Positions 47,591-48,709 of a stretch of DNA of 54,587 nucleotides are shown one piece after another (position 1 is the stretch's first letter; every line of letters starts with the position of its first letter). Below the pieces are notes generated by a model. The model ran no database searches. It had not been told where the DNA came from and saw only the letters and a program-made list of their open reading frames with translations. Both the position numbers and the translations under genes were made by a program. The stretch lies in the UHGV virus genome UHGV-0036483; one strand, written 5' to 3'. This DNA comes from a virus.

Positions 47591-48709
47591 TTACAAAATG
47601 GAATATTCAGGGTAATAAACAAAGCGCCCAATTTCCCCATGATCCGGGCTGTAAATAATCACCGCTGCCAGACGCCGCGACCGCCAACCGCCATTCGTTG
47701 AATAAGCGTCTTTACCCGCTAATGTGCCGTGATACTCAACAACGCCTAACGATGATTCAATCAGCCGTTGATGATGCCAGTGCCCGCAATGAGCGTAAAC
47801 CGCCGCAGACTTGCCGAAATCCTCACGCCAGTCAGACACACAAGCAGACAATAAATTTTCAGGTTTTTTGATTGTGTGTCCGTGGTGGTAAGCAAGGAAT
47901 GTTTTTCCGTACTGTGTGTGGTGGACGATGGCAGGGGACACATCAACCGTCACGCGCGGTTCATCTTCGTAAAAAGCCGCCAGCGACGCACGTAGCCATA
48001 TCATTCCTGACTGGTCGTGATTGCCGGATAACACCTGTATTTCAACATCCTTATGATTTAATAACATCTTCCCTACCGCCCGCCGGACCGACCGGATCGC
48101 TACATAAACAAGTTTTGCGTAGCGTGAATCGCAATCAAGTACGTGATTGCTTGATGGCGTAACTGGCAACAGACCGTCTGTGTGAAGAATATCCCCACCG
48201 AGAAGCAATACAGCTTTTTCAGACATCGGCGCAGCGCCTACAGCGTAGTCAAAGAAGTCATTCAACACGCGCTCAGCAATACCAGTGTCGTAGCTCTCGC
48301 CGCATTCAGCTTTATGAGCAAGCGCCCCGATATGCAGATCAAATACCGGATAAAGGGCCAGGCTTTTCTGAAAATCAATTTCAGGCACTGGCACAGCCTC
48401 CGCGCGTGGTATTTCATTCGTGAAAGCGTCGCGGGCGGCTTGCATTAGCCGTTCCATTTCGTCGCTGTCACGGGCCGTTTTAATCCAGCGCATGACCGTA
48501 TTGCCAGCATTATCGACAAGAACAGATTCACCAGTAACGCTAAAACCAGGAGCGCGGCGCGTGGATATTAAACCGCGTTTTGCTAGTTTTGCGCCCAGGC
48601 GTTCGACATTGCGTTTAGACATGCCATATTTTTCAGCGATCTGTTTATACGTTAAACCGTTTTGGTATTCAGCGATTAACTGCTCATCGCTGATTTTTCT
48701 TTGCGACAT
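47591..48709 (-). CDS. HTH domain fused to calcineurin-like metallophosphoesterase
   Basis: N-terminal LTYKQIAEKYGMSKRNVERL HTH; GGDILHTDG, GNHDQSG, HHGH, GHWHH phosphoesterase motifs; ATG 48709 inside ORF 47591..48733. Confidence 0.6.
   Translation of the reverse strand: MSQRKISDEQLIAEYQNGLTYKQIAEKYGMSKRNVERLGAKLAKRGLISTRRAPGFSVTGESVLVDNAGNTVMRWIKTARDSDEMERLMQAARDAFTNEIPRAEAVPVPEIDFQKSLALYPVFDLHIGALAHKAECGESYDTGIAERVLNDFFDYAVGAAPMSEKAVLLLGGDILHTDGLLPVTPSSNHVLDCDSRYAKLVYVAIRSVRRAVGKMLLNHKDVEIQVLSGNHDQSGMIWLRASLAAFYEDEPRVTVDVSPAIVHHTQYGKTFLAYHHGHTIKKPENLLSACVSDWREDFGKSAAVYAHCGHWHHQRLIESSLGVVEYHGTLAGKDAYSTNGGWRSRRLAAVIIYSPDHGEIGRFVYYPEYSIL

Follow-up and report, generated by a model that had tools for sequence, protein, structure and literature searches.

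A helix-turn-helix metallophosphoesterase next to dnaB in an mEpimmI-type coliphage: a catalogued phage protein family and its predicted function

The closest described relatives of the protein considered in this study are found in PHROG 704, a family of phage proteins named 'DNA repair exonuclease', in which 'exonuclease' is an annotation label given by curators. The members mEp044_10, Stevie gp37, Rtp rtp61 and EP23 p56 consist, over their full length, of a helix-turn-helix (HTH), a linker and a calcineurin-like metallophosphoesterase (MPE) domain, with 54 to 96% identity to the protein of interest and the same motifs, and more distant phage relatives of the PHROG 704 type present the same architecture and motifs at about 27 to 45% identity. 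The database names given to the family are inconsistent and include 'phosphoesterase', 'DNA repair exonuclease', 'HTH-type regulator/nuclease SbcD', 'oxidoreductase', 'Rrf2 family transcriptional regulator', 'DNA polymerase II small subunit' and 'MurE ligase'. In the literature that we searched (including mEp021, Drexlerviridae, SECphi27 escapers, T1 and essentiality), no functional study of the family was found; the Metis papers, which deal with a bacterial calcineurin-like MPE NADase in defence, were set aside as concerning a different protein, unrelated to HTH-MPE. Elsewhere among MPE proteins, the active site is inactive in the eukaryotic polymerase B-subunits, and the MPE domain of bacterial Pnkp is an end-healing 3'-phosphatase and 2',3'-cyclic phosphodiesterase.

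The DNA analysed here (the window, meaning the whole stretch of 54,587 nucleotides of the virus genome UHGV-0036483) comes, as judged from sequence similarity, from an mEpimmI-type temperate coliphage. The region of the HTH-MPE gene shows about 90% DNA identity to mEp044, mEp554, mEp010, mEp021, mEp515, mEp013 and MagusPhagus; mEp044 covers 88% of the stretch 44000-54587 at 90.5% identity, and for this stretch the integrase, cI, an N-like antiterminator, Erf and NinB were noted at the expected places. The mEpimmI coliphages are a temperate, non-lambdoid group, in whose description the HTH-MPE gene is not discussed (PMC11893012). The window protein is 95.7% identical to mEp044_10, annotated as hypothetical, and its gene is an orthologue of the one carried by the deposited mEpimmI phages, with nothing beyond them.

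Gene, domains and metal centre

The gene lies on the minus strand at 47591..48709 (372 amino acids, coordinates including the stop codon, from the ORF list and the sequence), exactly the interval given in the preliminary description of this DNA, and extends from an ATG at 48709 to a TAA at 47591-47593. A Shine-Dalgarno GGAGG, read from the sequence at 48720..48724 on the same strand, is located 10 nt 5' of the ATG. The ORF list extends the frame to a TTG at 48733, a start that was dropped: the homologues open with MSQRK, which makes the ATG at 48709 the likely start, and the ribosome-binding site matches this ATG. The top database protein match has E=1.6e-239, and residues 4-368 match PHROG 704 with E=4.3e-138 on positions 2-387 of a profile of 390. 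Furthermore, the dN/dS obtained from 33 distinct orthologous sequences is 0.066 overall, a value that rules out a pseudogene or an annotation artefact, and amounts to 0.049 in the HTH part (residues 1-55), 0.12 in the linker (56-113) and 0.058 in the MPE part (114-371). Purifying selection acts on both the HTH and the MPE domains, and it follows from the low ratios in these two parts that both domains are functional.

The N-terminal region contains a predicted three-helix HTH, probably of the LuxR/GerE/sigma-70 region 4 type (residues 8-44; 48578..48688, minus strand), recognized from the helices of an AlphaFold2 model (residues 8-16, 21-28 and 32-44) and from weak Pfam matches. In the window protein, these matches, to HTH_23, Rrf2 and Sigma70_r4_2, are sub-threshold (best 20.4 bits versus a threshold of 24.6); among the members of the family, the HTH of relatives matches Sigma70_r4_2 at 1.5e-9 and GerE at 2.4e-8, and the family profile matches GerE (1fse) in the PDB at E=0.14. 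Downstream of the HTH, a linker module formed by a beta-hairpin (58-78) and a long helix (79-97) is predicted by AlphaFold2 with low confidence (48419..48538, minus strand; pLDDT about 50-65).

The calcineurin-like MPE domain occupies residues 114-365 (47615..48370, minus strand). The preliminary description, which had proposed the fusion of an HTH to such a domain with GDxxH, GNHD, HHGH and GHWHH motifs, is borne out: the active site is intact and all four motifs are present, the last three being checked also against the DNA. Motif I, which had been missed, completes the five-motif MPE signature (DxH / GD / GNH[DE] / H / GHxH). In particular, on the minus strand, motif I (D124-L-H126) maps to 48332..48340, motif II (G171-G-D173-I-L-H176) to 48182..48199, motif III (G229-N-H-D232, with coding-strand codons GGCAATCACGAC) to 48014..48025, motif IV (H275-H-G-H278, codons CACCACGGACAC) to 47876..47887 and motif V (G309-H-W-H-H313, codons GGGCACTGGCATCAT) to 47771..47785. 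In 42 distant relatives, down to 30% identity, D124, H126, G172, D173, N230, H231, H276, G277, G309 and H312 are invariant and H176 and H310 are conserved in at least 90%, and G229, D232 and H278 likewise count among the signature residues with at least 90% conservation or none varying. The residues counted as metal ligands are D124, H126, D173, N230, H231, H276 and H312; since they are invariant in the 42 relatives, the family would consist of active enzymes, and the window protein is predicted to be an apparently active two-metal phosphoesterase. Among close relatives, two metal-ligand positions that are elsewhere invariant were seen to be altered in rare cases, with D124E in motif I of the 95% identical, 130-member cluster P0001 and H126Y in one IMG/VR orthologue.

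The AlphaFold2 model, built on 32 homologues (mean pLDDT 75.7, pTM 0.67), presents at residues 114-365 an alpha/beta sandwich that corresponds to the beta-sandwich MPE fold. Its structural matches include the Pol delta B-subunit (11.4), SbcD (10.8), Mre11 (10.7) and PolD DP1 (10.7), followed by GpdQ (10.2), Rv0805 (9.6) and LpxH (9.5), and the best Foldseek match, the PolD DP1 complex (E=8.6e-6), agrees with the MPE fold; fold prediction thus sustains the metallophosphoesterase assignment made earlier. The model-based ranking picks out no single MPE subfamily, and against BFVD the Foldseek matches are uncharacterised phage proteins only. In the window protein, Pfam gives no Metallophos match (PF00149 or PF12850) at E<0.01; among the 42 relatives, PF00149 is found in 11 (best 2.7e-5) and PF12850 in 7. 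An NCBIfam scan of the window protein returned no curated family. PDB sequence searches, whether started from the protein alone or from two profiles, yielded nothing significant for the MPE part, the weak and non-significant matches being to SbcD/Mre11 and 'Nuclease MPE' only (E=0.84 for T. maritima SbcD with a profile). The family profile was also aligned by hhalign to single-sequence templates, a comparison of limited sensitivity that excludes close kinship only, with probabilities of 2% for E. coli SbcD, where GNHD alone was aligned, 1% for lambda NinI and 0.1% for lambda P.

Distribution of the family and genomic settings

By tblastn, HTH-MPE was found in 2,044 of 50,697 phage records, and in 1,959 the match covers at least 80% of the protein. 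Most of the records belong to T1-like Drexlerviridae (54-67% identity among the matches listed); Salmonella siphophages reach 71% identity by tblastn, Jerseyvirus and Kagunavirus are at about 44% and some Autographiviridae (phiEa1H and KL01) at 38-41%, and the other carriers are Dhillonvirus, Casjensviridae and phages of Vibrio, Campylobacter, Rhodobacter, Sulfitobacter and Flavobacterium. When 1.84 billion representatives of metagenome-scale clusters drawn at 50% identity were scanned exhaustively with HMMER, 4,304 relatives were retrieved at E<=1e-3, of which 881 reach E<=1e-30. Among the best 150 of the 4,304 representatives, the MPE core is kept in 149, the linker module in 131 and the N-terminal HTH-like module in 124, and the core occurs without the HTH in 8 of the 149, as it does in Campylobacter phage F341. 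In E. coli chromosomes, HTH-MPE is a single-copy prophage gene in 35 of 5,426 complete genomes; a related-locus search of genome contigs returned 2 loci only. The fusion had been regarded as unusual, a judgement that these figures do not bear out: the HTH+MPE layout is the norm for the PHROG 704-type family. With the same fusion present in more than 2,000 sequenced phages, in most cases far from any DnaB helicase, it follows that there is nothing out of the ordinary in the HTH-MPE of the window as a member of this catalogued family.

In the window, the minus-strand gene order begins with a small initiator-like HTH protein (51472..51795) and continues with an O-like initiator (50464..51450), a Bro-N protein (49485..50156), a Rha/ANT antirepressor in two pieces (49210..49452 and 48727..49137), HTH-MPE and a DnaB-family replicative helicase (46157..47572; Pfam DnaB_C 1.7e-76, DnaB N-terminal domain 5.3e-12). 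Directly 3' of dnaB lies, as a further gene of the replication operon, that of a 186-aa protein with no PHROG match (45553..46113, minus strand), and NinB (44695..45126, minus strand) and the integrase (42441..43688, plus strand) are farther downstream; the cI repressor gene (52024..52671) is divergent from the minus-strand operon. The dnaB gene starts after an 18-nt gap from the MPE stop and has its own GGAGG, from which HTH-MPE and dnaB are predicted to be co-expressed in one operon.

The ORF at 51472-51795, in the 'cro position' just 5' of the initiator, resembles the N-terminal winged-HTH of replication initiators (phrog_4617, 1.3e-9), and its MagusPhagus counterpart is annotated as a 255-bp 'replication initiation protein'; the MagusPhagus counterpart of the 45553-46113 protein is labelled 'MarR family transcription regulator'. 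Inside the O-like initiator gene, positions 51084-51171 hold four tandem copies of a unit of about 23 bp, GGTTGCTCTCTGCCACTACCCCC, which encode the duplicated peptide GSGTKQPGVVAESN. Lambda has its ori iterons similarly arranged inside gene O, and by this likeness the repeats are a candidate, and probably the, phage replication origin. The Rha/ANT gene (48727-49452, minus strand) is split by an in-frame TAA at about 49207-49209, a position at which the intact mEp044_11 (236 aa, 83% identical) has Gln; the split gene could be a nonsense-interrupted pseudogene, encode two products or reflect a sequencing error.

The linkage with DnaB was examined by tblastn of the window DnaB against 91 loci, 40 of them mEp-like and 51 from other lineages. 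DnaB is directly downstream of HTH-MPE in all 40 mEp-like loci, whereas in none of the 51 other loci does it occur within 8 kb; it follows that the helicase link is specific to the mEp lineage, and DnaB adjacency is a trait of one phage lineage and not of the HTH-MPE family. The mEp phages show the order initiator, HTH-MPE, DnaB, NinB, and MagusPhagus the order initiator, three tiny ORFs, HTH-MPE, DnaB, with the antirepressor genes absent. About 520 bp are inserted between HTH-MPE and dnaB in three of the 40 mEp-like loci, from IMG/VR, where the C terminus of the MPE is altered, and in the tblastn rows of mEp010 and mEp515 the features listed for the MPE match include a homing endonuclease. 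The preliminary description had located the gene between the initiator and DnaB, where lambdoid phages encode a helicase loader. The place directly 5' of dnaB is real, and the MagusPhagus order makes the remark fair within the mEp lineage; however, three moron-like antirepressor ORFs part HTH-MPE from the initiator in the window, and the remark does not extend to the other lineages.

Outside the mEp lineage, the PHROG 704 genes have lysis, primase, ligase or tail genes in their vicinity and not DnaB, and the phages that carry them have non-DnaB helicases, a helicase-primase or their own DNA polymerase. In the T1-like phage Stevie, HTH-MPE has a Dam methylase 5' and the lysis cassette 3', and stands in one block with primase, SF2 helicase and VRR-NUC. 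Salmonella KE08 presents helicase, HTH-MPE and primase, with exoVIII, Erf and SSB farther along; in the Autographiviridae phiEa1H and KL01 the order is exonuclease, endonuclease, HTH-MPE, phosphatase and DNA ligase, and in Campylobacter F341 a junction resolvase and a ligase precede the MPE gene without HTH. The gene adjoins lysis genes in EP23, RcCWillis, pCB2047-A and a Vibrio phage, and Jerseyvirus has it between tail genes, as part of an accessory island. A location beside the lysis cassette or near the genome end was observed in five lineages, represented by T1-like, Vibrio, Rhodobacter, Sulfitobacter and Dhillonvirus phages.

Predicted activity and competing explanations

The top fold matches of the protein include DNA-acting MPE proteins (Pol delta B-subunit, SbcD, Mre11 and PolD DP1), and in unrelated phage lineages its gene repeatedly adjoins helicases, primases, nucleases, recombinases and ligases. 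From these matches and neighbours, together with the HTH and the intact two-metal centre, we infer a nucleic-acid substrate, most likely DNA. In the reading that we prefer, to which we would assign a probability of about one half, HTH-MPE is targeted to DNA, on which it works as a metal-dependent nuclease or end-processing phosphodiesterase, and belongs to an early DNA-metabolism module. The gene, packed against dnaB, would be co-transcribed with the early genes that serve replication and recombination in the mEpimmI-type phage, and the N-terminal HTH of the LuxR/sigma-70-region-4 type would probably tether the MPE enzyme to DNA; since the capping domain and an SbcC/Rad50 gene are absent, it is the HTH that would provide DNA binding. 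The MPE domain would then carry out an Mn2+/Fe-dependent cleavage of DNA phosphodiester bonds, either as an Mre11/SbcD-like nuclease that is independent of Rad50 and takes its grip on DNA from the HTH, or as a related end-processing phosphodiesterase, and its targets may be phage replication or recombination intermediates, or ends, during early lytic growth. The strongly constrained HTH of most representatives, the weak PDB matches of the MPE part to SbcD/Mre11 and 'Nuclease MPE', and the name under which curators file PHROG 704 were counted in favour of this reading. The lysis-side or genome-end position in several lineages, the Jerseyvirus tail island, the missing capping domain and Rad50/SbcC and the non-significant similarity to SbcD were counted against a nuclease. 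Thus, where a nuclease-like or signalling enzyme had been suggested at first, the nuclease-like role stays as our best, inferred reading, while the signalling role found no support.

It is also possible to hypothesize, although we consider it unlikely, a nucleotide or second-messenger phosphodiesterase that degrades cyclic nucleotide or oligonucleotide defence signals or salvages nucleotides, with the HTH regulating or localising it. However, the HTH is kept under strong constraint in 124 of the 150 representatives, a constraint not readily expected of a soluble enzyme that acts on small molecules; moreover, the window protein has no match among PADLOC or anti-defence families, and the gene is often co-located with those of DNA enzymes. 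An end-healing enzyme, a 3'-phosphatase or 2',3'-cyclic phosphodiesterase mending nicked or cleaved DNA or RNA together with a ligase, appears quite improbable. Such a function would suit the two Autographiviridae in which the gene stands between nucleases and a HAD/kinase-phosphatase gene with an ATP-dependent DNA ligase, as well as Campylobacter phage F341, where the MPE gene comes directly after the DNA ligase gene, but neither in the mEp-type phage of the window nor in T1-like phages is a ligase or kinase beside the gene, and the matches listed include no Pnkp-type-specific match of sequence or fold.

A further possibility, decidedly speculative, is that HTH-MPE is a Rad50-independent, sequence- or structure-targeted nuclease integral to the initiation of phage replication or to fork processing. 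Its partners in the mEp lineage would be the initiator and DnaB, and its task could be, for instance, to open or process origin DNA or replication intermediates ahead of helicase engagement; it would represent the bacterial-virus counterpart of the MPE-fold subunits in archaeal and eukaryotic replisomes.

We deem it very unlikely that the protein serves as an accessory of DnaB, whether as a helicase loader or as a replisome scaffold comparable to the B-subunits with an MPE fold that belong to the polymerases of archaea and eukaryotes. The 18-nt spacing from dnaB, the order held in the 40 mEp-like loci, the initiator-to-DnaB order without inserted morons in MagusPhagus and the absence of a recognisable loader from the replication module of the window would fit this role, as would the presence of the Pol delta, epsilon and alpha B-subunits and of PolD DP1 among the best fold matches. 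The 51 loci of the other lineages, however, have other helicases or a helicase-primase in place of a nearby DnaB, and the strictly conserved catalytic site points to an enzyme, so that neither a loader nor a scaffold is expected. Furthermore, similarity to lambda P or DnaC was not detected, and Pfam and NCBIfam find no AAA+ or IstB domain in HTH-MPE. P22-type phages, which encode a DnaB-like helicase themselves, are in addition not known to need a separate loader. The loader identity that the position had suggested is thus not supported.

Still harder to credit is a transcription regulator, with an HTH that would bind promoters of the phage or of its host and an MPE domain that would sense or modulate. 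One orthologue is named 'Rrf2 family transcriptional regulator' by NCBI, and the LuxR/GerE/sigma-70 region 4 type of HTH is typical of regulators; however, names of this kind rest on sub-threshold HTH matches, the catalytic residues are conserved as strongly as the HTH, and Campylobacter F341 and the 8 of 149 representatives mentioned above keep the MPE core without any HTH. Lastly, a NinI-like Ser/Thr protein phosphatase, suggested by the common superfamily and by the NinI genes that lambda-like phages carry in a similar early-right region, is largely refuted, given that the PPP motifs GDxHG, GDxVDRG and GNHE are absent from HTH-MPE, which reads FDLHIG, GGDILHTDG and GNHD, and that the hhalign probability is 1%, a single-sequence value that excludes close kinship only; the distinction from stand-alone NinI drawn in the preliminary description was correct.

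Altogether, the loader and protein phosphatase readings are not supported by the sequence comparisons, and HTH-MPE would be no new kind of helicase loader, its family being catalogued and its function predicted. While the window locus is ordinary, the family as a whole merits the attention of enzymologists. The identity of the substrate would correct the inconsistent database labels and would fill a gap in what is understood of DNA replication, recombination and host DNA in small siphophages that lack a polymerase; in addition, HTH-MPE occurs throughout the T1-like (Drexlerviridae) genomes, many of which were isolated as therapeutic candidates.

Comparison with proteins of similar position or fold

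The helicase loaders (lambda P, DnaC/DnaI) have in common with the HTH-MPE of the mEp lineage the slot between initiator and helicase, from which HTH-MPE departs by its conserved catalytic site and by its presence at loci without DnaB. Lambda NinI is likewise a phage early-region gene of the same superfamily, but it has no HTH.

A parallel in genomic context is offered by PDB 6nvo, the bacterial 'MPE' protein encoded in Lhr-MPE repair operons, which is an ssDNA endonuclease: in both cases the MPE protein is encoded beside a helicase, and a weak match at the level of motif III can be recognized. This match is, however, non-significant (E=1.5), and the 6nvo protein is smaller and without HTH.

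Mre11/SbcD proteins continue into a C-terminal capping domain, whereas in the AlphaFold2 model HTH-MPE ends with the core (about residue 365 of 372) and has the HTH instead. No Rad50/SbcC gene is adjacent in the window, and the annotation of MagusPhagus over its first 50 kb and of the other contexts examined lists none. As for PolD DP1 and the B-subunits of Pol delta, epsilon and alpha, their OB-fold is absent from the HTH-MPE model, and no partner polymerase is annotated in the related phage MagusPhagus. Different from the eukaryotic B-subunits, HTH-MPE has an intact active site.
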